NCBI GenBank assembly: GCA_964291495.2
Contig: OZ219871.1
Coordinates: forward strand, 1,303,355 to 1,367,354
Length of the DNA: 64,000 bases
Source of the DNA: Dehalococcoidia bacterium
Lineage (GTDB): Bacteria > Chloroflexota > Dehalococcoidia > UBA2979
Direction: 5' to 3'
The position numbers were made by a program, and so were the translations under genes. Below, piece after piece: positions 11,289-47,387 of the stretch; the first letter of the stretch is position 1, and the number at the start of each line of letters is the position of its first letter. The notes under the pieces were generated by a model, which worked only from the letters and a program-made list of their open reading frames with translations, did no database searches and was not told the origin of the DNA.

Positions 11289-11328
11289 GGCCCGATCATA
11301 TCGCGTGGCGCCCGAGCTGTGCGACGGC

Positions 11329-33063: not shown

Positions 33064-33969
33064 TTGACTGCGACAGGTCCCAGGTTCTCGCGGCGCAGGT
33101 TCCTCAGGCGCACCGTCCTCGGCGTGCTGCTCGGGGGCGCGCTGATCGTCTCCTGCTCGCGCTTCCGTCCGGACGACGAAGAGCCGCCCGAGGTCGTCGC
33201 CCACAGCCCGACGCCGACGCCGATCCCCACCGAGCCGCCGCCGGCGACCGTGACGCCCACGCCAACGCCCCGGCCGCTGCCGACGCGCAGATCCCGGCCG
33301 GCCACGCCGACTCCGACCGCCACCTCCGACCCCACGCCCGTCACGCCGACGCCGTACCCCTCGATGCTTGATCCCGAGGATCTGCGCGGCTTCGCCGTTC
33401 CGATCGAGGGAGGCTGCCTGCCCGACTCCGACCGGCTGATGCCGAACGCGCCCCGCGAGTACCGCAACGGCATCCATGAGGGCGTCGACTGGTACAACGG
33501 CCTCGCTTGCGCCGCCGTCTCCGAAGGCACCCCGGTGATGGCGATGTACCAGGGCATCGTGGTCCGCGCCGACCTCGACTACGTCGACATCACCATCGAG
33601 CAGGTCAACGAGTTCGCGGAGCGGACGGCCGAGAAGGGCTACACCGAGGAGCCGATCCTCGACATCTACCGGGGCCGGCAGGTCTGGATCGACCACGGCA
33701 ACGGCGTCGCCACCCGCTACTGCCACCTCAGCGTGATTGCCGAGGGCCTCGATGAGGGCGTCGAGGTCCAGCAGGGCCAGGTGATCGGCGGCGTCGGCGA
33801 GTCCGGCACGCCGGAGTCGATCACGGCGCCGGGCACGGAGATGCACCTGCACGCCGAGGTGCGCATCGGGGACTCGTTCCTCGGCTCCGGCCTGCCGCCC
33901 GACGAGGTGCGCGCGCTCTACGTGAAGCTGTTCGGCCTCGGCGCGGACGAGTCCGCCTCGGGAGGCTGA
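33064..33969 (+). CDS. M23 family metallopeptidase, Tat-signal lipoprotein
   Basis: TTG start. SRRRFLRRTVLGVLLGGALIVSC (twin-Arg plus lipobox), Pro/Thr linker, HEGVDW, IDHGNGVATRYCHLS, THLHAEV. Confidence 0.85.
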   Translation: MTATGPRFSRRRFLRRTVLGVLLGGALIVSCSRFRPDDEEPPEVVAHSPTPTPIPTEPPPATVTPTPTPRPLPTRRSRPATPTPTATSDPTPVTPTPYPSMLDPEDLRGFAVPIEGGCLPDSDRLMPNAPREYRNGIHEGVDWYNGLACAAVSEGTPVMAMYQGIVVRADLDYVDITIEQVNEFAERTAEKGYTEEPILDIYRGRQVWIDHGNGVATRYCHLSVIAEGLDEGVEVQQGQVIGGVGESGTPESITAPGTEMHLHAEVRIGDSFLGSGLPPDEVRALYVKLFGLGADESASGG

Positions 33970-34026: not shown

Positions 34027-34893
34027 GTGCCGATCCTCTCGATCGAGATCCCGTGGGATCCGAACATCACGCAGATCGGCGGGTTGCTGCTGACCTGGCA
34101 CGGGCTGTTCACCGCGATCGGCATCTTCGCCGGGGTGCGGCTGTCGCTCTTCCTCGTGAACGTCGTGCAGTACGACTACGACGACGCCTACACGCTCGCC
34201 CTCGTCGGCGTGCCCAGCGGGATCGTCGGCGCGCGCCTGCTCTTCGTCTTCGAGCACTGGGAGTCGTTCAGCGGCGACCCGGTGGCGATCCTGCGCATCA
34301 CCGAGGGGGGCATCTCGATCTGGGGCGCGATCCTCGGCGGCGTGATCGGCGGCCTGGCCTTCGGTCTCTGGAAGGGCTACCCGGTCGCCCGAGGGCTGGA
34401 CCTGGCCAGCTTCGGCATCATCCTCGGGCAGGCGATCGGGCGCCTCGGCGACCTCGTCAACGGCGAGCACCTGGCGAAGGCGAGCGAGCTGCCGTGGGCC
34501 GTCTTCTACACGCACGAGGACTCGCCCGCGTTCGTGCACTCGCTGCTGGTCGGGCCGCACCACCCGGCGACGACCTACGAGTTGATCGGCGACCTCGTGA
34601 TCCTCGGGGCGCTGTTCGTGCTGATGTTCCGCGTCTTCTGGCACAAGCCGGGGCTGACCTTCTGCTGCTACCTGGTCGGCTACGCGGTGATGCGCTTCTT
34701 CCTCACCTACCTGCGCATCGACTCCAGCGGGACGATCGTGCCGGAGCTGCGCGTCCCGCAGCTCGTCTCGCTGCTCGTGGTGCTCGGGATGGTTCCGGTG
34801 GTCTGGTACTTCGCGACGCGGCCGCCCGAGGAGGAGCCGGCGCCGCTCCATCGTCTGCCGCTCATCGGGCGGCTGCTCGGCGCGGAGCGGTGA
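34027..34893 (+). CDS. lgt: prolipoprotein diacylglyceryl transferase
   Basis: LTWHGLFTAIGIFAG, GARLLFVFEHW, GGISIWGAILGGVIGG, GQAIGRLGDLVNGEH. Confidence 0.92.
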   Translation: MPILSIEIPWDPNITQIGGLLLTWHGLFTAIGIFAGVRLSLFLVNVVQYDYDDAYTLALVGVPSGIVGARLLFVFEHWESFSGDPVAILRITEGGISIWGAILGGVIGGLAFGLWKGYPVARGLDLASFGIILGQAIGRLGDLVNGEHLAKASELPWAVFYTHEDSPAFVHSLLVGPHHPATTYELIGDLVILGALFVLMFRVFWHKPGLTFCCYLVGYAVMRFFLTYLRIDSSGTIVPELRVPQLVSLLVVLGMVPVVWYFATRPPEEEPAPLHRLPLIGRLLGAER

Positions 34894-35162
34894 CGGACGT
34901 CGTCCTCTATGGCCGAGAGGGCTGCGCCCCCTGCGCGCACGCCCGCGACGCGCTGCGCCGCCTCGGGCGCGACTTCGCCTTCGAGTTGCGCGAGCAGGAT
35001 GTCGACGCCGACCCGGCGCTCGACGCCCGCTACGGCGATCGCGTGCCGGTGATCGCGGTCGATGGCCGCGAGGTCAGCGCGGGCCGCATCGACTCGGCGG
35101 CGGTGCGGCGCGCGCTCGCGGAGGCCGGGCGCGCTGTTGACAGCAACAGCGGTCGTTCATAG
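34890..35162 (+). CDS. glutaredoxin-like (DUF836/YruB-type) thioredoxin-fold protein
   Basis: In-frame GTG at 34890 overlaps the lgt stop (GTGA): VTDVVLYGREGCAPCAHARDALRRL...RVPVIAVDGREV. It lies within the spurious long track ORF 34011..35162. Confidence 0.7.
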   Translation: MTDVVLYGREGCAPCAHARDALRRLGRDFAFELREQDVDADPALDARYGDRVPVIAVDGREVSAGRIDSAAVRRALAEAGRAVDSNSGRS

Positions 35163-35294
35163 CCTCGATTCACGCAGCGCGCCCGCGCTACGTGACATGG
35201 GCGTAGAGGCAGGAACGCGGAACGACCCGATGAGCGAACGACTGCTCCCGCTCCTCGCAGCCGCCGCCATGCAGCGCCCCGATCGGGGCCACAT

Positions 35295-35355
35295 GGTGAT
35301 GCGCTAGCCCGCCCGCCCCGCGAGAGCCGGGGCCAGCGGGCAGCCTCGCATCATC
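35295..35355 (+). promoter_or_regulatory. long nested hairpin in the 220-nt leader of the thrC-like operon (candidate attenuator or RNA element, class unknown)
   Basis: GGUGAUGCG (35295-35303) pairs with CGCAUCAUC (35347-35355, one G-U). Inner helices are GCCCGC/GCGGGC (35307-35312 / 35336-35341) and GCCCCG/CGGGGC (35315-35320 / 35328-35333), with a 7-nt loop. Confidence 0.3.
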
Positions 35356-35382
35356 CCGAACCCAGCCCGGAGCATCCCTGCC

Positions 35383-36642
35383 ATGTCCTTCGAACGTTCA
35401 CTGCGCTGCCGCGAGTGCGCGCGCGAGTTCCCGCTCGCCGCGGCCTTCTTCTGCGAGTTCTGTTTCGGCCCCCTCGAGGTCGCCTACGACTACGAGGGCA
35501 TCGCCGCCTCGATCTCCCGCGAGTCGATCGCGGCCGGGCCGCCGACGCTCTGGCGCTACGCCGATCTGTTGCCGTCCGAGCCCGAGTACCGCGTGGACCT
35601 CGGGGCGGGCTTCACGCCGCTGCTGCGGGCCGACAACCTGGCTGCGGCGCTCGGCCTCGAGCGGCTCTGGATCAAGAACGACACCGTCAACCCGACGTGG
35701 TCGTTCAAGGACCGCGTCGTCGCCGTCGCGATCGCAAAGGCGCGCGAGTTCGGCTACACCGGCATCGCCTGCGCCAGCACCGGCAACCTCGCGAACTCCG
35801 TCGCCGCGCACGGTGCTCGCGCCGGCATGGAGACGATCGTCTTCATCCCGCACGACCTCGAGGAGGGCAAGGTCGTCGGCAGCGGGATCTACGACCCGAC
35901 GCTCGTGATGGTCGAGGGCTCCTACGACGACGTGAACCGGCTCTGCACGGAGGTGTCGCAGTCCAAGCCGTGGGCCTTCGTCAACATCAACGTGCGGCCC
36001 TACTACGCCGAGGGATCGCGCACGCTCGGCTTCGAGGTCGCCGAGCAACTCGGCTGGCGCACGCCGGACCACTGCGTGGTGCCGATGGCCTCGGGCTCCC
36101 TCTTCACGAAGATCTGGAAGGGCTTCAACGAGCTGCACCAGGTCGGCTTGATCGACGAGCCGCGCACCCGTATGTCGGGGGCGCAGGCGGCCGGCTGCTC
36201 GCCCATCGCGACTGCCTTCGAGGAGGGCACGCTCAACTTCCGACCGCAGAAGCCGGACACGATCGCGCGCTCGATCGCCATCGGCAACCCGGCGGACGGC
36301 TACTATGCGCTCAAGACGCTGGAGGAGACGAACGGCGTCGCGGCAATGGCGACGGACGCGGAGATCGTCGACGGCATGAAGCTGCTGGCGGAGACCGAGG
36401 GCATCTTCGCGGAGACGGCGGGCGGCACCACGATCGCCTGCCTCAAGCACATGGTGGAGCGCGGCCAGATCGCGCCCGGCGAGGAGACCGTCGCCTTCAT
36501 CACCGGCGGAGGCCTCAAGACCACCGAGGCGCTGCAGGGCGGGCTCGCCAGCCCGCTGCTCGTGCCCGCCCGCGGCGACGCGTTCATCGAGGCCTACGAG
36601 GCGCGGCGGGCGCCCGCCGCAGCCGCGACAGGAGGGGCATGA
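35383..36642 (+). CDS. threonine-synthase-family PLP enzyme with N-terminal Cys4 zinc ribbon (ThrC, or MetM-like O-phosphohomoserine sulfhydrylase)
   Basis: CRECAREF...FCEFCFGPLE ribbon, PLP-lysine motif NPTWSFKDR, CASTGN, ITGGGLK. Function is ambiguous because of its operon partners (NIL plus CysO-type carrier). Confidence 0.9.
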   Translation: MSFERSLRCRECAREFPLAAAFFCEFCFGPLEVAYDYEGIAASISRESIAAGPPTLWRYADLLPSEPEYRVDLGAGFTPLLRADNLAAALGLERLWIKNDTVNPTWSFKDRVVAVAIAKAREFGYTGIACASTGNLANSVAAHGARAGMETIVFIPHDLEEGKVVGSGIYDPTLVMVEGSYDDVNRLCTEVSQSKPWAFVNINVRPYYAEGSRTLGFEVAEQLGWRTPDHCVVPMASGSLFTKIWKGFNELHQVGLIDEPRTRMSGAQAAGCSPIATAFEEGTLNFRPQKPDTIARSIAIGNPADGYYALKTLEETNGVAAMATDAEIVDGMKLLAETEGIFAETAGGTTIACLKHMVERGQIAPGEETVAFITGGGLKTTEALQGGLASPLLVPARGDAFIEAYEARRAPAAAATGGA

Positions 36643-36887
36643 TGGCAAGCAGGCCGGTCCGCTTCACTTTCTCGCCCGAGCTGATCCAGGAGCCGCTGAT
36701 CTACCTGCTCGGCCACGAGTTCGAGGTGATCACCAACATCCGCATGGCCGACGTCGACGCGCGCGTCGGCTGGGTCGTGCTCGAGCTCGAGGGCGAGCCG
36801 GACGAGATCGATCGCGCCATCGCCTGGGCCGAGTCGAAGGGCGTGCGCGTGGACCAGGCGACCCTCGGCGACGTCGTCGAGGGCTAG
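36639..36887 (+). CDS. stand-alone NIL domain protein
   Basis: ATGATG at 36639 overlaps the upstream stop (ATGA): MMASRPVRFTFSPELIQEPLIYLLGHEFEVITNIRMADVDARVGWVVLELEGEPDEIDRAIAWAESKGVRV, the NIL pattern (ferredoxin-like fold, as in the MetN C-terminus). Confidence 0.75.
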   Translation: MMASRPVRFTFSPELIQEPLIYLLGHEFEVITNIRMADVDARVGWVVLELEGEPDEIDRAIAWAESKGVRVDQATLGDVVEG

Positions 36888-36939
36888 CGAGCCGCAACCC
36901 GCCCGGCGCGCCGGGCCCGACAGCGAGAGGACCACTGCG

Positions 36940-37215
36940 ATGGCAGTGAACGTGCGAATCCCCGCCCCGCTCCGCACCCTGACGGGCGACCAGGAGCTCG
37001 TCAGCGCCGACGGCGCGACGCTGGCCGACGTGGTCGAGCACCTCGAGGCGTCCTACCCCGGCATGCGCGAGCGGCTCTGCGAGGACGACGGCGAGCTGCG
37101 CCGCTTCGTCAACGTCTTCGTGAACGGCGAGGACGTGCGTTTCCTCTCCGGCCTCGCCAGCGAGCTGAGCGAGGGCGACGAGGTCTCGATCGTCCCGGCG
37201 GTGGCCGGCGGCTAG
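36940..37215 (+). CDS. CysO/MoaD/ThiS-family ubiquitin-like sulfur carrier (carrier 1, MetO-like by context)
   Basis: 91 aa ending ...RRFVNVFVNGEDVRFLSGLASELSEGDEVSIVPAVAGG-stop. GAGAGGA SD. Confidence 0.9.
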   Translation: MAVNVRIPAPLRTLTGDQELVSADGATLADVVEHLEASYPGMRERLCEDDGELRRFVNVFVNGEDVRFLSGLASELSEGDEVSIVPAVAGG

Positions 37216-37231
37216 CCGGCAGCAACCGCAG

Positions 37232-38404
37232 ATGACCGGCTCGACGATCACGGACCTTCGCTACTACCTGGTCCACCCGACGCCGCCCGAGACCGGGCAG
37301 CCCGATCGCTACACCGCGGGCAAGAACCTCTGCTTCGTGCGCCTCGAGACCGCCGACGGCCTGCACGGCTGGGGCGAGTGCTACACGCAGTCCGATCGCG
37401 ACATCCAGATCACCGCGCACCTCGAGGCGCTGCGACGCTACATCGAGGGCTGGGACGCGGCGCGGATCAAGCCGTGGACGGACGCGATCTACAACGACTT
37501 CGGCAACCGCCGCGGCGCGATGGACCTCTACTCCGCGATCTCCGGCGTGGAGCAGGCGATGTGGGACCTCGCGGGCAAGCGCGCGGGCATGCCCGTGCAC
37601 CAGCTGCTCGGCGGCGCGGTGCGCGACCGGCTGCGCGTCTACGCCAACGGCTGGGCGCGCATGGACGACCTCGATGAGCTGCAGGCCCGCGCGCGGGCGA
37701 TGGCCGATCGCGGCTTCACCGGGCTCAAGTTCGACCCCGTGCCGGGCAAGTGGCGCAGCTACGTGGGCATGCCGGAGCTGCGCACCGCCGCCGATCGCGT
37801 CCGCGCCGTGCGCGAGGCGGTTGGCCCCGACGTCGACATCCTCGTCGAGGTCCACCGGCGGCTGAGCCCCTCGAACGCCGTACGGCTGGCGAAGCTGGTC
37901 GAGCAGTACGAGCCGTACTGGTTCGAGGAGCCGGTCTGGGCCGAGAACGTGACCGCCCTCGCCGCCGCCACGGCGCAGATCAACATCCCCACCGTCACCG
38001 GCGAGGAGCTCTACACCAAGTTCGAGTTCCGCGAGGCCTTCGAGCAGCGCGCCGCCGACATCATCAACCCCGACGTGGCGAACGTCGGCGGCATCAAGGA
38101 GCTGACTGAGATCGCGGCGATGGCCGAGGCCTACTTCGTCGCGGTCAGCCCGCACAACTACAACTCGACGACGGTGGCGCTGGCCTCGACGCTGCAGGCC
38201 GCGGCGACGATGCCCAACTTCATCATCACCGAGTACTTCGTGAACTTCGAGGGGTGGGGCCGGGAAGCGGCGACGGCGCCGTTCGAGGTGGTGGACAGCC
38301 ACATCGCCCTCCCGACGGCGCCGGGCCTCGGCATCGACCTCGACGAGGAGGTGCTGAAGGCGCATCCGGCGCGCGAGTTCCCGGTGCGCACGATCGGCGA
38401 CTAG
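37232..38404 (+). CDS. enolase-superfamily enzyme (mandelate racemase / muconate lactonizing family, acid-sugar dehydratase-like)
   Basis: HGWGECY, AISGVEQAMWDLAGKRAGMPVHQLLGG, VEVHRRL, YWFEEP, GEELYT, ADIINPDVANVGGI. Starts 16 nt after carrier 1. Confidence 0.88.
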   Translation: MTGSTITDLRYYLVHPTPPETGQPDRYTAGKNLCFVRLETADGLHGWGECYTQSDRDIQITAHLEALRRYIEGWDAARIKPWTDAIYNDFGNRRGAMDLYSAISGVEQAMWDLAGKRAGMPVHQLLGGAVRDRLRVYANGWARMDDLDELQARARAMADRGFTGLKFDPVPGKWRSYVGMPELRTAADRVRAVREAVGPDVDILVEVHRRLSPSNAVRLAKLVEQYEPYWFEEPVWAENVTALAAATAQINIPTVTGEELYTKFEFREAFEQRAADIINPDVANVGGIKELTEIAAMAEAYFVAVSPHNYNSTTVALASTLQAAATMPNFIITEYFVNFEGWGREAATAPFEVVDSHIALPTAPGLGIDLDEEVLKAHPAREFPVRTIGD

Positions 38405-38469
38405 CCGATCCGGGCTCCGCTCCTCGGGGCGAGGTCGCTGAGCCAGGGAGCAGATCGAGGGGCAGTCAG

Positions 38470-39555
38470 ATGAAGGTAAGCGGCTGGACCACCCGCGTGC
38501 TTGAGGTCCCGGACGTCAATCCGCTCATCGTCGGCGTCGACCAGCCCGGTACGCGGGAGTTCGTCACGCTGGAGCTGGACACCGACGAGGGCGTGCAGGG
38601 CATCGGCATAACCTTCTTCGGCGGCCCGCTGACACCGGCGCTGCGCACGGCGGTCGACAACCTCTGCGAGCTGACGGTGGGCGAGGACCCGCTGCAGGTG
38701 GAAGCGGTCAGCGACAAGCTGTGGCTCGCGGCGGGCGGCGCCGGCCCCGAGGGCATCTTCACCCTCGCGCTGGCGGCGATCGACATCGCGCTCTGGGACA
38801 TCAAGGGCAAGGCGCTGAACCAGACGGTGTGCTCGCTGCTGGGCGGGCACCGCGACCGGGTGGTGACCTACGCCAGCGGCGCGCTGGGGCGTCCGATGAG
38901 CATCGAGTATCTGGCCGAGGCAGGCCCTCGGCTGGTGGACATGGGCTTCAGGCAGATGAAGACCCAGATGGGCGCCGAGCCGACCGCCCGGCGCGAGGTG
39001 GCCCGCATCCGCACGCTGCGCGACGCGATCGGCCCGGACATCGATCTGATGTGCGACATCAACCAGCTCTGGGACGTCAACCAGGCGATCGAGATCGGAT
39101 CGCGCGTGGAGGAGTACCACCTGTACTGGCTGGAGGACGTGGTCGTCCGCGACGACTACCAGGGCCTGGCGCGGGTGGCCGACGCGCTCACGACGCCGAT
39201 CGCCGCCGGAGAGTACGTCTACGGCATCCGCCCCTTCCGGCACATGCTGGAGCAGCGCTCGATCGACATCGTGATGGTCGACCTGCTGCGGGTGGGCGGG
39301 TTCACGCAGTTCCGCAAGGTGGCGGGCATGGCCGAGGCCTTCAACCTGCCCGTGGTCAGCCATTTGGTCCCCGAGCTGCAGGTGCACTCCATCGCTGCCG
39401 TGCCCAACGGGCTGACGGTGGAGTACATGCCCTGGACGCTGCGGCTCTACGAGGAAACCCCGGCCATCGAGGACGGGGAAATCGTGGTGCCGGACAAGCC
39501 GGGCCTGGGCCTCGCGTTCGACCGGGACGCCCTCGAGCGCTACCAGGTTGGCTAG
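38470..39555 (+). CDS. enolase-superfamily enzyme (mandelate racemase / muconate lactonizing family), second paralogue
   Basis: Internal ATG at 38470 (MKVSGWTTRVLEVP...). ALAAIDIALWDIKGKALNQTVCSLLGG, DINQLW, YWLEDV, AAGEYVY, DIVMVDLLRVGG. Confidence 0.88.
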   Translation: MKVSGWTTRVLEVPDVNPLIVGVDQPGTREFVTLELDTDEGVQGIGITFFGGPLTPALRTAVDNLCELTVGEDPLQVEAVSDKLWLAAGGAGPEGIFTLALAAIDIALWDIKGKALNQTVCSLLGGHRDRVVTYASGALGRPMSIEYLAEAGPRLVDMGFRQMKTQMGAEPTARREVARIRTLRDAIGPDIDLMCDINQLWDVNQAIEIGSRVEEYHLYWLEDVVVRDDYQGLARVADALTTPIAAGEYVYGIRPFRHMLEQRSIDIVMVDLLRVGGFTQFRKVAGMAEAFNLPVVSHLVPELQVHSIAAVPNGLTVEYMPWTLRLYEETPAIEDGEIVVPDKPGLGLAFDRDALERYQVG

Positions 39556-39562
39556 CGAGCGC

Positions 39563-39590
39563 TTGGCCCAAGAGGGCAATGTGCTAGAAT
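39563..39590 (+). promoter_or_regulatory. candidate sigma-70-type promoter of the rrf2-cysK-... operon
   Basis: TTGGCC (39563-39568), a 16-nt spacer, then TGC-TAGAAT (extended -10; TAGAAT at 39585-39590). It sits in a locally AT-rich 70-nt island (tgtgctagaatgttgagcaacttactcgacaatagc) 39 nt upstream of ATG 39629. Confidence 0.45.
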
Positions 39591-39628
39591 GTTGAGCAAC
39601 TTACTCGACAATAGCGGCGGTCGGGTCC

Positions 39629-40075
39629 ATGTGGCTGAGCAGGAAGGGCGACTACGGCGTTCGCGCGCTGATTGACCTCGCGCTCCACGACGGCGAGGGG
39701 CCGGTCCAGCGCGCGGGCATCGCCGATCGCCAGGAGATCCCGGAGTCCTACCTCGATCACCTGATGGCGCTGCTGCGCCGCGGCGGCTTCGTGCGCAGCG
39801 TGCGAGGCCCGGGCGGCGGCCACCTGCTGACCCGCCGCCCCGAGGAGATCTGCCTGCTCCACGTGATCGAGAGCCTCGAGGGCTCCGTCGCCCCGATTTC
39901 CTGCGTCGAGGATGGTGAGGAGTGCACCTACGACTGCGGTCTCTGCGCCCAGCGCCCCGTCTGGGAGGAGATCTACCAGGACATGCGCCGCCGCCTCGGC
40001 GCGGTCAGCATCGCCGACCTCGCGGAGCGCGCGCGGGCGCAGCAGCACGCCCGGGCCGCGCACTACTCGATCTGA
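39629..40075 (+). CDS. Rrf2-family transcriptional regulator (IscR/CymR-like) with four-Cys cluster
   Basis: MWLSRKGDYGVRALIDLAL..., wHTH IADRQEIPESYLDHLMALLRRGGFVRSVRGPGGGHLL, Cys cluster ISCVEDGEECTYDCGLC. Confidence 0.9.
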   Translation: MWLSRKGDYGVRALIDLALHDGEGPVQRAGIADRQEIPESYLDHLMALLRRGGFVRSVRGPGGGHLLTRRPEEICLLHVIESLEGSVAPISCVEDGEECTYDCGLCAQRPVWEEIYQDMRRRLGAVSIADLAERARAQQHARAAHYSI

Positions 40076-41028
40076 TGACGACGACCACGCACACCACGGA
40101 GGGTCGCCGCGCCCAGCCGGCGATCGCCGACTCCGTGCTCGACCTGATCGGCGGGACGCCGCTCGTGCGGTTGCACCGCGTCGTACCCGAGGGCTGCGCC
40201 GAGATCCTCGGCAAGCTCGAGTCGCGCAACCCGGCCGGTTCGGTCAAGGACCGGATCGCGCTGAGCATGATCGAGGACGCGGAGCGCGACGGCCTGATCG
40301 CGCCGGGCGACACGATCGTCGAGCCGACCTCGGGGAACACCGGCATCGGCCTCGCGATGGTCTGCGCGCGCAAGGGCTACGAGCTGATCCTGACGATGCC
40401 CGAGGACATGAGCGTCGAGCGGCGGCGCCTGCTCGAGCGCTTCGGAGCGGAGCTGCGGCTGACCCCGGCGATCGAGGGCATGACGGGCGCGGTCTACGCC
40501 GCCCGGCAGTTGTCCGAGGAGCACGGCTACTTTATGCCGCAGCAGTTCGACAACCTCGCCAACCCGCGCACCCACCGCGAGACCACGGGCCCCGAGATCA
40601 TCGAGGCCACCGGGGGCGAGCTCGACGCGTTCGTCGCCGGCGTCGGCACCGGCGGATCGATCACCGGCGTCGGCGAGGTGCTGCGTGAGGCCGGCGTGGG
40701 CGTGCGCATCGTCGCCGTCGAGCCGTCGCGGTCGCCCGTGCTGCAGGGCGGGCGCGCCGGGCTGCACGGCATCCAGGGCATCGGCGCCTCGTTCGTGCCG
40801 GGCGTGCTCAACCGCGAGGTCTACGACGAGGTGATCAGCGTCCGCGACGAGGACGCCTACACGATGGCGGAGCGGCTCACCCGCGAGGAAGGCCTGCTCG
40901 TCGGCATCTCCGCCGGCGGCAACGTCTGGGCCTCGATCGAGATCGGCAAGCGGCTGGGGCCGGACTGTCGCGTGGTGACGATGTTGTGCGACACCGGGGA
41001 GCGCTACCTGAGCGTGGCGCTCTCGTGA
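40075..41028 (+). CDS. cysK: cysteine synthase (CysK-type PLP enzyme)
   Basis: ATG at 40075 overlaps the rrf2 stop (ATGA). LIGGTPLVRL, ESRNPAGSVKDR, EPTSGNTGIGLAMV. Confidence 0.9.
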   Translation: MTTTTHTTEGRRAQPAIADSVLDLIGGTPLVRLHRVVPEGCAEILGKLESRNPAGSVKDRIALSMIEDAERDGLIAPGDTIVEPTSGNTGIGLAMVCARKGYELILTMPEDMSVERRRLLERFGAELRLTPAIEGMTGAVYAARQLSEEHGYFMPQQFDNLANPRTHRETTGPEIIEATGGELDAFVAGVGTGGSITGVGEVLREAGVGVRIVAVEPSRSPVLQGGRAGLHGIQGIGASFVPGVLNREVYDEVISVRDEDAYTMAERLTREEGLLVGISAGGNVWASIEIGKRLGPDCRVVTMLCDTGERYLSVALS

Positions 41029-41093
41029 GCGGCAAGCGACTGGGAACGGATCGAGAGCATATGACAGAGCGGCAGGAAGGACGGCGATCGGAG

Positions 41094-42212
41094 ATGGCGG
41101 TCAGCGTCTACATCCCACAGCCATTCCGCAGGTTCACGGCGAACCGCGAGTACGTCGAGGTGGACGGCGGCGACGTCGCGGGGGTCCTCGACGCGGTGAA
41201 CGCGCGCTACCCCGGCTTCGACATGCTGGTCTATGACCGCGAGCGCCGGGTGCCCGCGCACATCAACATCTACGTCAACAACCAGGAGATCCACGACCTC
41301 GACGGCATCTCGACGGCCGTCGGCGACGGCGACCAGGTCGCGGTCATCCCCGCGCTCGCGGGCGGCGCCGCGCCCAGCACGGCGCTCACCCCGGACGAGG
41401 CGATGCGCTACTCGCGGCACATCATCATGCCGCAGGTCGGCTCGATCGGGCAGCGCCAGCTGCGCAACGCGAAGGTGCTGATCGTCGGCGCGGGCGGCCT
41501 CGGCTCCCCGGTCGCGATCTACCTCGCGCTGGCCGGCGTCGGCACGATCGGCCTGGTCGACTTCGACGTGGTCGACCTCTCCAACCTGCAGCGCCAGCTG
41601 CTGCACCAGACCGAGGATGTCGGACGCACGAAGCTCGACTCGGCGGTGGACACGCTGCACGCCTACAACCCGCACGTGCGGGTCGTGACGCACCCTGCGC
41701 CGCTGCACTCGGAGAACGCGATGGAGATCATCGGGGACTACGAGATCATCGTGAACGGCGCGGACAACTTCGCGACGCGCTACCTGGTGAACGACGCCGC
41801 CTACCTGCTGGGCAAGACCCTGGTCGACGGCTCGATCCTGCTCTTCGACGGGCAGGCCACGGTGTTCAAGCCCGGCGAGGGCTGCTACCGCTGCCTTTAC
41901 CCCGCGCCGCCGCCTCCCGGCCTCGTGCCATCGTGCGCCGAGGCGGGCGTGCTCGGCGCGATCACCGGCATCGTCGGCTCGATCCAGGCGACCGAGGTGT
42001 TCAAGCAGGTGCTGGACATCGGCCGGCCACTCGTCGGGCGGCTGCTGCTGATCGACGCCTTGACCATGGAGTTCCGCGAGATGAAGCTGCGGCGCGACCC
42101 GGCTTGCCCGCTCTGCGGCGACGAGCCGACCGTGACGGAGCTCATCGACTACGACGCGTTCTGCGGCTCCCCACCGCTCGAGGCCCCGACGGCCAACGGC
42201 GGCGGACACTAG
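41094..42212 (+). CDS. fusion protein: CysO/MoaD-like ubiquitin-like sulfur-carrier domain (residues 1-91, ending AGG) plus MoeB/ThiF-type E1 adenylyltransferase
   Basis: MAVSVYIPQPFRRFT...ARYPGF...INIYVNNQEIHDLDGISTAVGDGDQVAVIPALAGG (GG encoded at 41361-41366) continues without a stop into AAPSTALTPDEAMRYSRHIIMPQVG...VLIVGAGGLGSP...SCAEAGVLG, with CYRC...CPLC zinc motifs. Alternative start at ATG 41061. Confidence 0.85.
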   Translation: MAVSVYIPQPFRRFTANREYVEVDGGDVAGVLDAVNARYPGFDMLVYDRERRVPAHINIYVNNQEIHDLDGISTAVGDGDQVAVIPALAGGAAPSTALTPDEAMRYSRHIIMPQVGSIGQRQLRNAKVLIVGAGGLGSPVAIYLALAGVGTIGLVDFDVVDLSNLQRQLLHQTEDVGRTKLDSAVDTLHAYNPHVRVVTHPAPLHSENAMEIIGDYEIIVNGADNFATRYLVNDAAYLLGKTLVDGSILLFDGQATVFKPGEGCYRCLYPAPPPPGLVPSCAEAGVLGAITGIVGSIQATEVFKQVLDIGRPLVGRLLLIDALTMEFREMKLRRDPACPLCGDEPTVTELIDYDAFCGSPPLEAPTANGGGH

Positions 42213-42252
42213 AGGCGCACGGACGTCCTCGGCGACTGGGAGGGAGCCGGCC

Positions 42253-42528
42253 TTGGAGGTGCGGGTCAACGTGACCTCGGTCATCCAGAAGACCGTCGGC
42301 GGGCAGCGCGCGCTGACCGCCGAGGGCGGCACCATCGCGGAGCTGATCGACGACATCGAGCGGCGCTATCCGGGCTTCCGCGACCAGCTCGTCGACGAGG
42401 GCGGGCAGCTGCACCGCTTCGTCAACGTCTACCTCAACGACGAGGATGTGCGCTTCATGGAGGGCGCCGCGACGGTCCTCAGCGAGGGCGACGAGGTGTC
42501 GATCCTCCCCGCGCTGGCCGGCGGCTAG
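42253..42528 (+). CDS. cysO: CysO-type ubiquitin-like sulfur carrier (carrier 3)
   Basis: 91 aa ending ...HRFVNVYLNDEDVRFMEGAATVLSEGDEVSILPALAGG-stop. TTG (or GTG 42259) start. 15 nt upstream of cysM. Confidence 0.9.
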   Translation: MEVRVNVTSVIQKTVGGQRALTAEGGTIAELIDDIERRYPGFRDQLVDEGGQLHRFVNVYLNDEDVRFMEGAATVLSEGDEVSILPALAGG

Positions 42529-42543
42529 CGGCGGAGCAGCATC

Positions 42544-43512
42544 GTGGGTGAGGCGGCAGCGCGGCAGACCGGGCGGACGCCCGCCGGCAGCGTGCTCGAC
42601 CGCATCGGCGGCACCCCGCTGGTCGACATCTCCGCGATGTCGCCCAACCCGGACGTCAGCATCTACGCCAAGCTCGAGGGCGAGAACCCGACCGGCTCGG
42701 TCAAGGATCGCATCGCCTGGTGGATGGTCTCGAGCGCCGAGCGCGACGGCCGCCTGGAGCCGGGCCAGACGATCCTCGAGCCGACCTCCGGTAACACTGG
42801 GATCTCGCTCGCCATGATCGGCCGCCTCCGCGGGTACCCGGTGAAGGTGGTCATGCCGGACGCCGTCACGCGCGAGCGCGTCCAGCTGCTCGAGAGCTTC
42901 GGCGCGGAGATCCTCTACTCGCCGGGCGACCTTGGCACCAACGGCTCGGTGCGCGAGGCGGAGCGCATCCACACCGAGCATCCCGAGTGGTTCATGCCCT
43001 TCCAGTACGAGAACGAGGACAACCCGCGCGCCCACTACGACAGCACCGCCCCCGAGATCATCGAGGATTTGCCGGACACCGACGTCTTCGTCGCCGGCCT
43101 CGGCACGGGCGGCACGCTGACCGGCGTCGGCCGGCGGCTCAAGGAGCACAACCCGGCCGTGCGTATCGTCGCCGCCGCCCCGCACCCGGGCGACCTCGTG
43201 CAGGGCCTGCGCAGCCTCGAGGAGGGCTACATCCCGCCCGTCCTCGACGAGTCCGTGCTCGACGGCCGGATCGTCGTTGACTCGGCGACCTCGTTCCGGC
43301 TGACGCGGGAGCTGACGGAGCGCACCGGCATCTTCGCGGGCGTCTCCAGCGGTGCGGCGGTGCGCGCCGCACAGCGCGCGGCGGAGCGGATGGCCGGTGG
43401 GAAGGTGGTCTGCCTGCTGGCGGACAGCGGCTGGAAGTACCTCTCCTCGGGCCTCTGGACGCAGGACTACGACGAGATCGAGGAGGACGTAAGCACGACG
43501 CTCTGGTGGTAG
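42544..43512 (+). CDS. cysM: CysM-type cysteine synthase (carrier-thiocarboxylate / O-phosphoserine-dependent type, by context)
   Basis: IGGTPLVDI, GENPTGSVKDR, EPTSGNTGISLAMI. GTG start. Confidence 0.88.
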   Translation: MGEAAARQTGRTPAGSVLDRIGGTPLVDISAMSPNPDVSIYAKLEGENPTGSVKDRIAWWMVSSAERDGRLEPGQTILEPTSGNTGISLAMIGRLRGYPVKVVMPDAVTRERVQLLESFGAEILYSPGDLGTNGSVREAERIHTEHPEWFMPFQYENEDNPRAHYDSTAPEIIEDLPDTDVFVAGLGTGGTLTGVGRRLKEHNPAVRIVAAAPHPGDLVQGLRSLEEGYIPPVLDESVLDGRIVVDSATSFRLTRELTERTGIFAGVSSGAAVRAAQRAAERMAGGKVVCLLADSGWKYLSSGLWTQDYDEIEEDVSTTLWW

Positions 43513-43561
43513 CCGGAGCGTGAACGACCGGCGGCAGGGCCGCCGGGAAGGGGGAAGCAGG

Positions 43562-44386
43562 ATGGCTGACAAGCTTGTCACCGCGGACTGGGTCGCCGAA
43601 CACGGCGGCGATGCGAACGTGCGCCTCGTCGAGGTGGACGTCGACACCGGCGCCTACGACGAGGGCCACATCGCCGGCGCCGTCGGCTGGAACTGGGCCA
43701 CGCAGCTGCAGGACCAGGTGCGCCGCGACGTGATCGCGAAGGACGACCTCGAGGAGCTCCTCGGCGCGTCCGGGATCGGCAACGACACGCACGTGGTGCT
43801 CTACGGCGACAACAACAACTGGTTCGCGGCCTACGCGCTGTGGCTGCTCGAGCTCCACGGCCACGAGCAGGTCTCGCTGATGGACGGCGGGCGCGTGAAG
43901 TGGATCGCCGACGGGCGTGAGATCACGACCGACGCGCCCTCGATCGGCCGCGCGAGCTACTCGGCGTCGGAGCAAGACGCGGGCCTGCGCGCGCAGCGCG
44001 ACGAGGTGCTCGCGGCAGTCGCGGCGCAGGCGCCGCAGCTGGTGGACGTGCGCAGCCCGGCCGAGTTCGTCGGCGAGATCATCGCGCCGCCCGGCCTGCC
44101 GGAGACGGCGCAGCGCGGCGGGCACATCCCGGGCGCGATCAACGTTCCCTGGGCGCGCGCCGTCAACGAGGACGGCACCTTCCGCAGCGCCGACGAGCTG
44201 CGCGAGATCTACGGCGGCGCCGGCGTCAGCGCGGGCGATCCGGCGATCGCCTACTGCCGCATCGGCGAGCGCTCCTCGCACACCTGGTTCGTGCTCAAGT
44301 ACCTGCTCGGCCACGAGGACGTGAAGAACTACGACGGCTCGTGGACCGAGTACGGCTCGCTCATCGGCGTGCCGATCGAGACCTAG
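43562..44386 (+). CDS. two-domain rhodanese (thiosulfate sulfurtransferase, SseA/CysA-like)
   Basis: Internal ATG at 43562 with GGGAAGGGGGAAG SD: MADKLVTADWVAEH...EGHIAGAV. Active-site loop YCRIGERSSHTWF. Confidence 0.88.
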   Translation: MADKLVTADWVAEHGGDANVRLVEVDVDTGAYDEGHIAGAVGWNWATQLQDQVRRDVIAKDDLEELLGASGIGNDTHVVLYGDNNNWFAAYALWLLELHGHEQVSLMDGGRVKWIADGREITTDAPSIGRASYSASEQDAGLRAQRDEVLAAVAAQAPQLVDVRSPAEFVGEIIAPPGLPETAQRGGHIPGAINVPWARAVNEDGTFRSADELREIYGGAGVSAGDPAIAYCRIGERSSHTWFVLKYLLGHEDVKNYDGSWTEYGSLIGVPIET

Positions 44387-44396
44387 CCCGGAGCCG

Positions 44397-44795
44397 GTGG
44401 CGGCGGGCGCGATGGCGGGAGGCAGCGAGGGCGGGCGCGGATCGCAGCGCGCGATCGTCGAGCGAGCGATCGCGCGCGGCGAGTACGGGCTGCTGACGCT
44501 GCGCTTCCGCACCTCCGTCCTCGACCGCTACCGCGAACGGGCGGACGCGCGGATGATCCGCACGCGCACGGTCGGCCGCATCGCGATCGTGCGCGGCTGG
44601 TCGATCGACGCGGGGATCGCGCCCGGCGAGGAGGAGATCGAGGTGTTCGCGTCGGACTTCGCCGAGCGTGTCCCCGAGGCTGAGCGCGCGCACTGGCTCG
44701 ACCACCTCGCGGTGCAGCCGTCGAGCGCGAACTTCGCGCTGATGCGGCTCAGCGGGAACGCCTGCATCGACGACGGCGAGCCGGAGGCCTGGTAG
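44397..44795 (+). CDS. hypothetical protein, unknown function, wedged between the rhodanese and JAMM genes
   Basis: Track ORF with GTG start (alternative ATG 44412). It starts 10 nt after the rhodanese stop and ends 2 nt before the JAMM start. GC3-rich. No family recognised. Confidence 0.6.
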   Translation: MAAGAMAGGSEGGRGSQRAIVERAIARGEYGLLTLRFRTSVLDRYRERADARMIRTRTVGRIAIVRGWSIDAGIAPGEEEIEVFASDFAERVPEAERAHWLDHLAVQPSSANFALMRLSGNACIDDGEPEAW

Positions 44796-44797
44796 CG

Positions 44798-45229
44798 GTG
44801 CCGCGGATTCCTCGAGCCATCGCCGACGCGATCATCGCGCACGCCCGAGAGGATCTGCCGAACGAGGCGTGCGGCCTGGTGCACGCGAAGGACGGCGAGC
44901 CGATCTCGGTGCACCGCGTCACCAACGTCGCCGCCAGCCCCTACCGCTTCGAGATGCACGGCATGGAGCAGATGCGGCTGGAGCAGCAGCGCGACGAGCG
45001 AGGCGAGACGCTGTTCGCGATCTACCACTCGCACGTCGCCTCCCCCGCCTACCCCTCGCAGACCGACGTGCGGATGGCGTTCTTCCCGCCCGGAGAGACG
45101 GACCGCGATCCGGCCTACCCGGGAACCTTCTACCTGCTCGTCTCGCTCGCCGAGGATCCGCCGCCGCTGCACACCTACTACATTCACAAGGGCGGCGTGA
45201 TCGAGGAGATCCCCGCCGAGATCGTCTGA
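44798..45229 (+). CDS. JAMM/MPN+ metalloprotease (Mec+/CysO hydrolase-like)
   Basis: NEACGLV (catalytic Glu) and HSHVASPAYPSQTD, an exact H-x-H-x7-S-x2-D JAMM motif. Confidence 0.9.
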   Translation: MPRIPRAIADAIIAHAREDLPNEACGLVHAKDGEPISVHRVTNVAASPYRFEMHGMEQMRLEQQRDERGETLFAIYHSHVASPAYPSQTDVRMAFFPPGETDRDPAYPGTFYLLVSLAEDPPPLHTYYIHKGGVIEEIPAEIV

Positions 45230-45247
45230 CCGTCCGGAGCGTCCTCG

Positions 45248-46120
45248 ATGCCGCCCGAACCATCCGCCTCGCCGCCCCCGCCGATCACGATCGGCGGACG
45301 CTGCTTCGAGTGGGGACGGCGCAGCTACGTGATGGGCATCGTCAACGCCACGCCCGACTCCTTCTCCGGCGACGGCGTCCTCGACCCCGCCGCCGCCGCC
45401 GGCCAGGCCGCGCGCATGGTCGGGGACGGCGCGGACCTGATCGACGTCGGCGCGGAGTCCACGCGGCCCGACCACGAGCCCCTCGACGCTGCCGGGGAGT
45501 GGGCGCGCCTCGCGCCCGTGCTGCGCGCCGTGCGCGAGGCAGTCGAGGCGCCGATCAGCGTCGACACCTCGAAGGCGCACGTCGCCGAGCGCGCCTTCGA
45601 CGCAGGCGCGGACGCACTCAACGACGTGCACGGCCTGCGCGCCGACCCCGCGCTCGCGCCGCTGCTCGCCGCGCGCGGGCTGCCCGCCGTGCTGATGCAC
45701 AACCAGCGCGGCCGCCCCGCCTCCGGCGACGTGATCGCCGACGTGCGCGCGGGCCTCGAGGAGTCGCTCGCGATCGCCGAGGCGGCGGGCGTGCGGCGCG
45801 AGCTGCTGATCCTCGATCCCGGCTTCGGGTTCGGGATCGGGCCGGCGCAGAGCCTCGAGCTCGTGCGCCGGCTCGGCGAGCTGCGCTGCTTCGGGCGGCC
45901 GCTGCTGCTGGGTAGCTCGCGCAAGTCCGCGATCGGCTGGGCGCTCGGGCGCGAGCAGGAGCCGGCCGCCTCGCGCGTCGCCGGGAGCGCCGCAACGGTG
46001 GCGCTCGCCATCGCCGCCGGGGCCGACATCGTGCGCGTCCACGACGTGCGCGAGATGGCGGACGTCGCGAGGGTCACGGACGCGGTCCTGCACGGGCGTC
46101 GCCGCGAGGAGCCGGCGTGA
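45248..46120 (+). CDS. folP: dihydropteroate synthase
   Basis: [36 protein letters not shown]. Confidence 0.93.
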
Positions 46121-46647
46121 CGGCGGGCGCCGTGCTGCGCGTCTACCTGGGCATCGGCGGCAACCTCGGCGACCGCGTCGCCGCGCTGCGCACGGGCCTC
46201 GAGCGGCTTGCCGAGGCGGGCGTGACCATCGAGGCGGTCTCATCGCTCTGGGAGACGGAGCCGTGGGGTGGACCGGCCTGCGCCGAGCCCGCGCCGGCCT
46301 ACGCGAACGCCGCCGCCTGCGTGCGCAGCACGCTCGAACCCCTTGAGCTGCTGCGCCTCTGCAAGCGCATCGAGGTCGCCGCGGGGCGCGATCTGGACGC
46401 GCCGCGCAACAGCCCGCGCCCGCTCGATCTCGACCTGCTGCTCGCCGGCGACCTGCGCATCGAGAGCGAGGAGCTGCGGATCCCGCACCCGCGCATGCAC
46501 CAGCGCGGCTTCGTGCTCGTTCCCCTCGCCGAGATCGCACCGGACGTCGTGCACCCGCTGCTCGGGCGCTCGATCGCCGAGCTGCGCGACGCGGTGGGCC
46601 TCGAGGGCGTCGAGCCGCTCTCGCCGGCGGGCTGGGAGTCCGGCTAG
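46117..46647 (+). CDS. folK: 2-amino-4-hydroxy-6-hydroxymethyldihydropteridine diphosphokinase
   Basis: [39 protein letters not shown]. 4-nt overlap with folP. Confidence 0.92.
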
Positions 46648-47387
46648 CCCTCCAGCAGCCGCTCGCGCAGGCGCGCGATCAGCGGCTCGTCGACGCCTCC
46701 GAGGGCTAGCAATGCCTCGGTCGAGCCGTAGCGCGCGTCGATCCCGCTGAGCAGCGAGCGCATCGTCTCGGGCGCGGCGTCGAGCATCTCGCGCGTGAGA
46801 TCGGTACCCCACGTCTTGCCGCGCTCCGCGATCTGCTCGTCGCTGAGGTCGCGCCACATCGTCAGGTACTCGCGGGTCAGCGCGTAGTCCGCGACGATCG
46901 TCTCGTCCGGCACGCCGAGGGCGCGCAGCAGCAGCGCCGCCGTCACGCCCGTGCGGTCCTTGCCGCCCTCGCAGTTGAAGGCCACGGTCCGGCTCGTGTC
47001 GGCCTCGGCGATCGCGGCGAAGACCTTGCCGATCGCCGTCACGGCGTCCTCGACGCCTTGCAGGTAGTCGAGGCCGGGCCCGTTGCGGGCGCGCATCGTG
47101 ACCCGCCCGTAGGGCTGGTGGCGGTGCTCCACGCCGTGCTCGTGCAGCGCGGAGATTCCGCTCCTCTCCAACTCCTCGTTGGTGCGCAGGTCGATCACGA
47201 GCGCGAGGTCGAGGTCGAGCAGGCGCTGTACGTCGGCCGGTGTTGCCTGCGAGAGCGTGCTGGAGCGGTACACAGTGCGCCAGCGCACGCGTGCGCCCTC
47301 GCTGGTCTCGTACCCGCCGAGGTCCCGGAAGTTCGTCACGCGCTCGAACGGGAGGCGACGCTCGAGGGCCTCCGCTGGGCCCGTCAT
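46644..47387 (-). CDS. protein tyrosine/serine phosphatase (Y_phosphatase3-type)
   Basis: Start at ATG 47387 (ATGA overlap with the upstream small gene). NFRDLGG; CX5R loop [10 protein letters not shown]. Confidence 0.85.

Follow-up and report, generated by a model that had tools for sequence, protein, structure and literature searches.

A run of 13 co-directional genes at positions 35383-45229 of the Dehalococcoidia DNA analyzed here (contig OZ219871.1; the whole stretch of 64 kb is called the window) was examined for its part in sulfur metabolism. We consider it likely, and hold this with good confidence, that two adjacent, separately controlled operons in this run constitute one protein-thiocarboxylate sulfur-assimilation system. 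The system most likely joins two known pathways, the mycobacterial CysO/CysM/Mec route to cysteine and the Streptomyces MetM/MetO route to homocysteine, with shared machinery. A first-pass annotation, made from the sequence, had already described a cysteine (Cys) branch and a homocysteine/methionine (Met) branch served by a common E1, rhodanese and JAMM protease, and this description is borne out by the likeness to CysO and CysM, by SAM-I riboswitches in relatives and by a conserved gene order. It had also taken the genes for one regulated island. What we found are two operons under different controls, a leader of the Met/S-adenosylmethionine (SAM) type for operon 1 and a promoter with an Rrf2 operator for operon 2.

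Gene content and conservation of the two operons

To gain a view of the conservation of the cluster, a synteny scan was performed with one genome per species, and it retrieved 34 metagenome-assembled genomes (MAGs) of Chloroflexota/Dehalococcoidia with a close E1 relative (loci numbered L001 onward). Nearly all 34 have the order lgt … MetM-NIL-C1 … Rrf2-CysK-C2/E1-C3-CysM-Rhd-unk-JAB-folP-folK, where C1 to C3 are the three carriers, Rhd is the rhodanese, unk a protein of 127 amino acids (aa) and JAB the JAMM protease. The identity of the E1 among these syntenic relatives goes down to 74%, and that of the 127-aa protein falls to about 35-50%. With this order kept in about 34 species-level genomes, chance adjacency, a possibility that the first-pass annotation had raised against itself, does not account for the cluster.

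The two MR/MLE genes that lie between the operons were counted as island members by the first-pass annotation. As a pair they are confined to eight of the ten closest relatives; L038 retains MR2 only and the flank of L005 likewise shows MR2 only. Elsewhere the same junction is occupied by an amidase, enoyl-CoA hydratase, GNAT acetyltransferase, DinB or DoxX gene. As the pair is lineage-limited and other genes take its place, the island consists of two conserved operons and a variable slot, and the MR/MLE pair is inserted cargo outside the sulfur system. In L030, a c-di-AMP riboswitch (6993-7128; 83.5 bits) lies in the slot between both operons.

Among solved structures, carrier 3 and the CysM-type enzyme are nearest to the mycobacterial proteins. 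Carrier 3 (ThiS, 60 bits; ending in LPALAGG) has M. tuberculosis CysO (3dwg_C) as its best solved relative, with E = 3e-25 over the full length. The best solved relative of the CysM-type enzyme is M. tuberculosis CysM (3dwg_A), with 281 bits compared with 243 bits for the next family; the alignment reaches the C-terminus of 3dwg_A, and the C-terminal extension ends in WW. Also retained is an Arg that pairs in the alignment with that of the M. tuberculosis motif YALRNMDEG, which we take to be the phosphate-binding Arg220.

The shared machinery is likewise encoded in operon 2. The E1 resembles MoeB; it has two CxxC motifs and, within SCAEAGV, a Cys that is invariant. It ends about 30 residues past the second CxxC, and the third gene downstream codes for a separate rhodanese. 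MoeZR-type E1 enzymes have no CxxC motifs and carry a fused C-terminal rhodanese (PMC3227635); by this distinction the E1 is, as judged from its motifs, of the MoeB type and not of the MoeZR type. The rhodanese had been annotated as a two-domain protein with a CRIGERS loop, and the Pfam profile indeed matches it in two stretches (111 bits). It scores 347 bits against the putative thiosulfate sulfurtransferases 3aax and 3hwi, to which it is about 60% identical, and all 31 of its 31 orthologues have the CRIGERS active-site loop unchanged. The JAMM protein matches Prok-JAB with 74 bits, and the perfect HxHx7SxxD motif ascribed to it is present, as it is in all 33 of its 33 orthologues.

Operon 1 is most likely a MetM/MetO-type homocysteine operon, a reading drawn from sequence comparison. 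Its first gene encodes a ThrC-like enzyme (PALP, 230 bits) with an N-terminal Cys4 zinc-ribbon extension, whose best solved relative is ThrC 6cgq (210 bits, residues 56-404). In 33 of the 33 loci having MetM, a ThrC homologue and a ThiS/CysO-type carrier share one operon, and in every one of them the NIL protein is encoded between MetM and carrier 1. Carrier 1 (ThiS, 78 bits; ending in VPAVAGG) is 55% identical to M. tuberculosis CysO. In L017, L022, L025, L028 and L030, a SAM-I riboswitch (RF00162; 66-77 bits, cut-off 44) immediately precedes the metM orthologue, which ties operon 1 to methionine and not to threonine. The NIL protein (NIL, 54 bits), whose start overlaps the metM stop (ATGA), weakly resembles the C-terminal, methionine-binding domain of MetN and may be a ligand-binding regulatory or adaptor subunit. 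NIL proteins recur also in an unrelated methanogen route. The precedent for operon 1 is Streptomyces albulus, where a threonine-synthase homologue, MetM, is reported (Hasebe et al. 2024) to make homocysteine from O-phosphohomoserine together with its carrier MetO, MoeZ and a JAMM of the Mec type; the metM gene there belongs to a two-gene operon and is preceded by a SAM riboswitch.

From these genes and their conserved order we infer the chemical steps of the system and its carrier-enzyme pairing as follows. The rhodanese would load a persulfide, probably from thiosulfate, and the MoeB-type E1 would adenylate the C-terminal glycine of the ThiS/CysO-type carriers, whereupon the persulfide sulfur would turn the carrier acyl-adenylate into a thiocarboxylate. 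In the Cys branch, the CysM-type enzyme would join O-phosphoserine and the carrier-3 thiocarboxylate, and the JAMM protease would hydrolyse the carrier-cysteine adduct. In the Met branch, MetM would join O-phosphohomoserine and the carrier-1 thiocarboxylate to give homocysteine, and this branch would draw on operon 2 for its E1, rhodanese and JAMM. The JAMM protease may additionally act as a maturase that cuts the carrier 2-E1 fusion after Gly-Gly before carrier 2 is activated.

If this proposal is true, widespread uncultured Chloroflexota (marine, sponge-associated and subsurface MAGs) would make both sulfur amino acids via protein thiocarboxylates, and a single activation and release machinery would serve both. 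The ThrC-like gene in these genomes should then not be read as a threonine synthase, nor should the genomes be predicted to be Met or Cys auxotrophs. The cluster also opens several questions to direct test: can a single E1 charge paralogous carriers, can a JAMM protease mature a carrier by cutting it from the E1 to which it is fused, what is the role of the NIL protein in homocysteine synthesis, and how far does CymR-CysK docking reach beyond Firmicutes?

The 127-aa protein encoded in operon 2 has no Pfam, NCBIfam or PDB sequence match. Its gene is always 3' of the rhodanese gene, and the loci that have no rhodanese (L023, L028, L029) lack the protein or have it in truncated form. It carries an invariant Cys118 in a C-terminal ACIDDGEPEAW tail. 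All 40 close homologues belong to this clade, and a profile search yielded 88 representatives among 1.84 billion proteins. An AlphaFold2 (AF2) model of the protein (pLDDT 83) gave no significant match when searched with Foldseek against the PDB (best E = 0.37), and the frataxin/CyaY-like hits among the results were not significant. That the protein serves as a persulfide relay is a guess. Its core (profile positions 27-106), with the motif F..DVL.RYR…RT…GRW…LPE.ER.HW, was also found inside larger proteins without a Pfam family (P0351, P0354, P0363, P0365 (about 550 aa) and P0358), which are devoid of the C-terminal Cys tail. An apparent rhodanese-127-aa fusion (P0337) turned out to be a frameshifted gene call and no real fusion.

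Control of operon 1 and operon 2

The region upstream of operon 1 contains a promoter-like site, a short leader open reading frame (ORF) and a GC-rich hairpin (Table 1). The promoter-like site is conserved in the relatives without a riboswitch (L001-L016, L027, L038); its -10 is weak and was not called in a consensus scan. Of the related loci, 26 share without change the 17-nucleotide (nt) core GGYGATGCGYTAGCCCG of the leader motif ATGGTGATGCGCTAGCCCG. Over the 60 nt ahead of the motif, an in-frame ATG was counted 30 times, while the other frames gave 2 and 0. The body of the leader peptide is variable and its tails are Met-rich, as in …VAMMRGMSLGMRMQLVMR, …APMRPMVMR and …MRWPGMRMHAPMVMR, and depending on the lineage, 2-5 of the last 15 codons are Met. 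The Met-rich tails, together with the bias for an in-frame ATG, suggest that the leader ORF fits a methionine-sensing leader peptide. The stem base of the hairpin is conserved, and the sequence of the inner stem varies by lineage yet stays paired. Of the features of an attenuator, a short ORF with Met codons was found, while a U tract and a terminator hairpin that alternates with an antiterminator were not.

In L017 (3385-3699), L022 (5747-6089), L028 (2981-3324) and L030 (3589-3872), the leader and hairpin stand in tandem behind the SAM-I riboswitch. A SAM or other riboswitch in the window itself was rejected, since the Rfam scan came out empty at the gathering score and, on 34850-35420, also at E <= 10, and the aptamer occurs only in more distant relatives. 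By this comparison, the lineage of the window has evidently lost the SAM-I aptamer and kept the leader and hairpin. That the conserved 19-mer of the leader marks a whole regulon was also considered and rejected. Each locus has it once, and in metagenomes the full 19-mer was found upstream of metM, save for two near-identical unrelated contigs; it is specific to metM. The leader may be an undescribed methionine-sensing leader peptide or a riboswitch expression platform. We propose that operon 1 would sense methionine or SAM through the Met-codon leader peptide and the hairpin, with SAM-I in addition upstream in relatives.

The promoter of operon 2 is the only sigma-70-like match in 34800-46800, and its -10 is kept as TAnAAT in relatives. 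It is overlapped by an inverted repeat that lies upstream of the Rrf2 gene in most related loci and is a perfect palindrome in L016. In the window this repeat is the only close match, and no similar site is present ahead of operon 1. The 25-bp palindrome is, by its position and conservation, the probable operator of the Rrf2 regulator. In the proposed mechanism, a CymR-like Rrf2 repressor would bind this palindrome over the -10.

The regulator matches Pfam Rrf2 with 126 bits and ends in HYSI. The C-terminal Y-x-I is invariant in 35 orthologues and the preceding residues vary. The protein is below the cut-off of the IscR model (99 compared with 208). Of the four Cys only two are conserved; an IscR-type Fe-S cluster on it is therefore unlikely, and we rejected such a cluster as unsupported. 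The start of cysK overlaps the stop of the Rrf2 gene by 1 nt (TGATG). In S. aureus, the C-terminal Ile of CymR (…GYMFYI) and that of CysE (…DDYII) are inserted into the active site of CysK. The invariant Y-x-I, this precedent and the overlap with cysK lead us to suggest that CysK, besides being an enzyme, probably acts as partner and sensor for the Rrf2 regulator. The first-pass annotation had called it a conventional CysK. The cysK call itself stands (TIGR01139, 427.8 bits, cut-off 351), and to it is added this probable partnership. The Y-x-I tail would probably dock in the active site of the co-translated CysK, such that O-acetylserine or cysteine status sets the expression of operon 2.

The carrier 2-E1 fusion and competing explanations

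Carrier 2 constitutes residues 1-91 of the fusion (ending in VIPALAGG) and is followed by an 11-aa linker and then the E1. Pairwise identities are 47% for carriers 1 and 3, 35% for carriers 1 and 2 and 29% for carriers 2 and 3. The fusion is found in 28 genomes. Its linker is of low complexity and very variable length, with a conserved E1 N-terminus after it, and an AF2 model of the fusion shows only two folded domains and a disordered linker. In L028-L029 and L031-L033, by comparison, carrier 2 is a separate gene whose product ends in AGG plus 3-10 residues (SGA, AEQR, ADGGTR, ADGGMG and, in L028, a duplicated tail), and the stop of the free carrier abuts or overlaps the E1 start; in L030, carrier 2 is on a reading frame separate from that of the E1. 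The sequence VIPALAGG is invariant in both fused and unfused forms. The invariant Gly-Gly, the freely varying linker and the free forms with short tails suggest that carrier 2 is probably a precursor that is cut by the JAMM protease after Gly-Gly. The same pattern is known from HcyS-Ala and QbsE-CF, carriers that are matured by JAMM proteases. The first-pass annotation had left the function of this third, fused carrier open; the comparative data now point to a cleaved precursor, and the pathway that it feeds stays open.

Tails past the Gly-Gly are not confined to carrier 2. Carriers 1 and 3 have 1-11 residues past it in many relatives, with 1-5 extra residues in the carrier 1 orthologues of several. 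Carrier 1 of L016 ends in AGGATLVQ, and its stop falls in the Rrf2 operator region. Carrier 3 of L012 and L013 (about 11209-11520) has an 11-residue tail (…AGGAATLGRARRG). The free carrier 2 of L028 (7252-7572) ends in …VIPALAGGSGIPALAGGSGA, a tandem duplication of the Gly-Gly tail with two possible cleavage sites. In the more distant relatives L034, L035 and L037 (SAR202-type) as well as L036, L039 and L040, an unfused E1 is directly followed by a rhodanese or CysM gene without an adjoining carrier gene. The pairing of carrier and E1 is specific to the clade of the window.

Another explanation for the fusion is that carrier 2 is never released and is instead a built-in regulatory or docking domain, one that plugs the carrier site of the E1 or recruits CysM, MetM or JAMM, with carriers 1 and 3 as the only true sulfur carriers. 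The fusion is stable in about 28 species genomes and in thousands of ThiS-ThiF proteins in databases, no acceptor enzyme is evident for carrier 2, and it is the most diverged of the three carriers (34% to CysO), all of which would suit such a domain. However, a docking domain would have no need of a conserved Gly-Gly, VIPALAGG stays the same whether the carrier is fused or free, in contrast to the linker with its free variation in length and sequence, and the free protein in L028-L029 and L031-L033 has a short, removable tail. We therefore regard a carrier 2 that stays attached as unlikely. Just as unlikely in our estimate is a more elaborate scheme in which the fusion is a self-blocked pro-enzyme. 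The Gly-Gly of the tethered carrier 2 would not be adenylatable and the carrier may occupy the carrier site of the E1, so that the JAMM cut would license the E1 for all carriers and free the third one, and the 127-aa protein would shuttle persulfide from the rhodanese to the E1 via its invariant C-terminal Cys. If true, this would amount to proteolytic gating of bacterial sulfur assimilation in the style of ubiquitin precursors.

Two further explanations address the system as a whole. Operon 1 could serve ordinary threonine synthesis, with carrier 1 and the NIL protein active in, for example, molybdopterin or thiamin synthesis and the two operons merely syntenic. The ThrC-like enzyme passes the thrC model TIGR00260 (273.6, cut-off 167), its closest solved structures are threonine synthases, and a Microcystis homologue is reported to act as threonine synthase and deaminase. 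On the other hand, MetM is documented to be often annotated wrongly as threonine synthase, a SAM-I riboswitch and Met-codon leader precede the operon in relatives, and carrier 1, which always follows the enzyme, has its 55% identity to CysO and not to ThiS or MoaD. These considerations make ordinary threonine synthesis improbable. Slightly more improbable still is a ubiquitin-like conjugation system akin to archaeal SAMPylation or Thermus TtuB, in which target lysines would be modified with the carriers and the JAMM protease would take these off again, the PLP (pyridoxal phosphate) enzymes being neighbours or targets. Carrier 1 does pass the NCBIfam SAMP1 cut-off (79 compared with 60), the E1 matches the model of the SAMP-activating UbaA, and the JAMM protein matches "desampylase" below the cut-off. 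SAMP and TtuB proteins are, moreover, both sulfur carriers and modifiers. However, each free carrier adjoins a PLP enzyme of the thiocarboxylate-using kind, the rhodanese is part of the operon, the Met riboswitch or leader and the Cys-type regulator fit amino-acid synthesis, and no E2-like fold was found for the 127-aa protein.

Several observations nevertheless weigh against the thiocarboxylate system that we favor. In the Met branch, the thrC cut-off is passed as described above, NCBIfam holds no MetM model, and sequence alone cannot separate MetM from a true threonine synthase. In the shared machinery, the E1 does not have the rhodanese domain of MoeZR, and L023, L028 and L029 are without the rhodanese, so that it is not strictly required in the cluster; as for carrier 2, it has no evident acceptor enzyme. 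Concerning regulation, no U tract follows the leader hairpin, which thus is no U-tract terminator. In the window, no SAM aptamer was detected at the Rfam gathering score, and none was detected at E <= 10 on 34850-35420. A long-range helix of GGUGAUGCG with a downstream CGCAUCAYC is present in close relatives and elsewhere is not above shuffles, and this candidate was rejected. Lastly, the Rrf2 protein is below the cut-off of the CymR equivalog NF047409 (93.8 compared with 195).

Known systems, gene coordinates and neighbouring genes

The cluster represents variations on known pathways, namely in the type of E1, the carrier-E1 fusion, the NIL and 127-aa proteins, the pair of a CymR-like regulator and CysK, and the Met leader. 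The M. tuberculosis CysO-CysM-Mec+ cysteine pathway was reportedly described by Burns et al. in 2005, and PMC3227635 gives a summary of it. As in that pathway, a Gly-Gly carrier, a CysM-type enzyme and a JAMM protein are clustered, and the proposed chemistry has a thiocarboxylate-forming E1 and rhodanese-bound sulfur. Unlike in M. tuberculosis, a MoeB-type E1 is in the operon and has a further carrier as its fusion partner, two rhodanese domains make up a protein of their own, and the 127-aa Cys protein, the Rrf2 regulator and CysK are encoded within the operon. JAMM proteases that trim residues past Gly-Gly before the E1 acts and then release the product are known from HcyS/HcyD/HcyF/MetY of Wolinella succinogenes and QbsE/QbsD of Pseudomonas. 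The carriers with residues past Gly-Gly and the JAMM protein in the cluster resemble HcyS and QbsE. In contrast, the "tail" of carrier 2 here is a whole E1, and the putative homocysteine-forming enzyme is ThrC-like where Wolinella has MetY.

One E1 that serves several carriers is also known from Amycolatopsis, where it is MoeZ. In mycobacteria, the single E1 MoeZR serves CysO, MoaD1 and MoaD2 (PMC3227635). Like these enzymes, the E1 of operon 2 would charge paralogous carriers of different pathways; unlike them, it is clustered with its carriers, one of which is covalently fused to it. Operon 1 resembles MetM/MetO of S. albulus in that a ThrC homologue is followed by a ThiS/CysO-type carrier, the Mec-type JAMM and the E1 are encoded elsewhere, and a SAM riboswitch lies upstream, the last here in relatives only. 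It differs from the two-gene operon of Streptomyces in that the NIL gene lies between enzyme and carrier, translationally coupled to the enzyme, that the aptamer is lost in the lineage of the window with the Met-rich leader ORF and hairpin kept, and that it stands beside a Cys operon supplying shared machinery. As for the regulator, it shares with CymR-CysK of Bacillus and Staphylococcus its membership of the Rrf2 family and a tail ending in Ile. Unlike CymR, it is only distantly related, its gene is translationally coupled to cysK, it has two conserved Cys, and its regulon, as far as seen here, consists of its own thiocarboxylate operon.

The G+C content of the window is 70-73%. Genes were called by third-position G+C, followed by translation and start checks, and the island proteins were scanned with Pfam and NCBIfam profiles. 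All 13 genes are on the + strand (Table 1), with intergenic gaps of 2-73 nt across the island; the first-pass annotation had given gaps of 2-65 nt and 14 proteins, whereas we counted 13 polypeptides, or 14 domains if the carrier 2-E1 fusion is counted twice. Of its two ATGA overlaps, the one at 36639 was found, while the second junction is the 1-nt overlap TGATG at 40073-40077. The profiles agreed with its assignments of carriers, PLP enzymes, E1, JAMM, rhodanese, Rrf2, NIL and MR/MLE proteins. The C-terminal signature that it gave for the carriers is common to all three, each ending in AGG, and the two strings it quoted for the DNA likeness of carriers 1 and 3 occur exactly, at 37174 and 42487. 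It was right that the E1 is fused to carrier 2 but misplaced the fusion, which lies at 41094; an MR/MLE enzyme lies at 37232. Its count of a single E1, JAMM and rhodanese holds within the 64-kb window, where a search detected no further E1, JAMM, rhodanese or carrier paralogue. Exact-sequence look-ups of the window proteins returned no matches, and a literature search found no paper describing this Chloroflexota cluster.

Table 1. Genes and cis elements of the two operons and the slot between them, in window coordinates.
Feature	Position	Strand	Family, motif or basis
Promoter-like site, operon 1 (TTGACA, 17 nt, TAGCCT)	35137..35165	+	sequence reading
Leader ORF, MSERLLPLLAAAAMQRPDRGHMVMR-stop	35230..35307	+	conserved end ATGGTGATGCGCTAG, M-V-M-R-stop
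GC-rich hairpin (GCCCG…CGGGC), begins at leader stop codon	35307..35341	+	single-sequence and alignment folds
ThrC-like PLP enzyme, MetM candidate	35383-36642	+	PALP
Stand-alone NIL protein	36639-36887	+	NIL
Carrier 1, MetO/CysO-type	36940-37215	+	ThiS
Two MR/MLE enzymes, sugar-acid dehydratase-like	37232-38404, 38470-39555	+	MR_MLE_N and MR_MLE_C each
Promoter, operon 2 (TTGGCC, 16 nt, TG-n-TAGAAT)	39563..39590	+	sigma-70-like match
25-bp 9-7-9 inverted repeat (AATGTTGAG-N7-CTCGACAAT), putative Rrf2 operator	39588..39612	+	overlaps -10
Rrf2-family regulator, CymR-like	39629-40075	+	Rrf2
CysK, O-acetylserine sulfhydrylase A type	40075-41028	+	PALP, TIGR01139
Carrier 2-E1 fusion	41094-42212	+	ThiS (residues 7-91), ThiF (106-339)
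Carrier 3, CysO-type	42253-42528	+	ThiS
CysM-type PLP enzyme, O-phosphoserine sulfhydrylase type	42544-43512	+	PALP
Two-domain rhodanese	43562-44386	+	two rhodanese domains
127-aa protein, start ATG 44412	44412-44795	+	no family match
JAMM/MPN+ metalloprotease, Mec/HcyD-like	44798-45229	+	Prok-JAB with HSHVASPAYPSQTD

The genes that flank the island were also inspected. Downstream, folP and folK (45248-46647, +) begin 18 nt past the JAMM gene and overlap at a GTGA junction. The order JAMM-folP-folK is retained in nearly all relatives. The two genes may share a transcript with operon 2, with no apparent link in function. Upstream, a glutaredoxin-like gene (34890-35162, +; DUF836, CAPC motif) has a GTG start that overlaps the lgt stop, and in most relatives this lgt-grx pair likewise precedes the metM operon. 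The formation of thiocarboxylates requires a thiol reductant. An ORF at 35062-35307 that had been considered as "grx?" was discarded because it is in the wrong frame, the real features being the glutaredoxin-like gene and the short leader. In L010 (about 2331) and L027 (about 2885), an extra, distant rhodanese-like gene, with 30-32% identity to the island rhodanese, is located between lgt/grx and metM. Farther upstream of lgt, a gene at 33064-33969 (+) encodes a predicted M23 peptidase that is lipoprotein-like and has a long linker rich in Pro and Thr.

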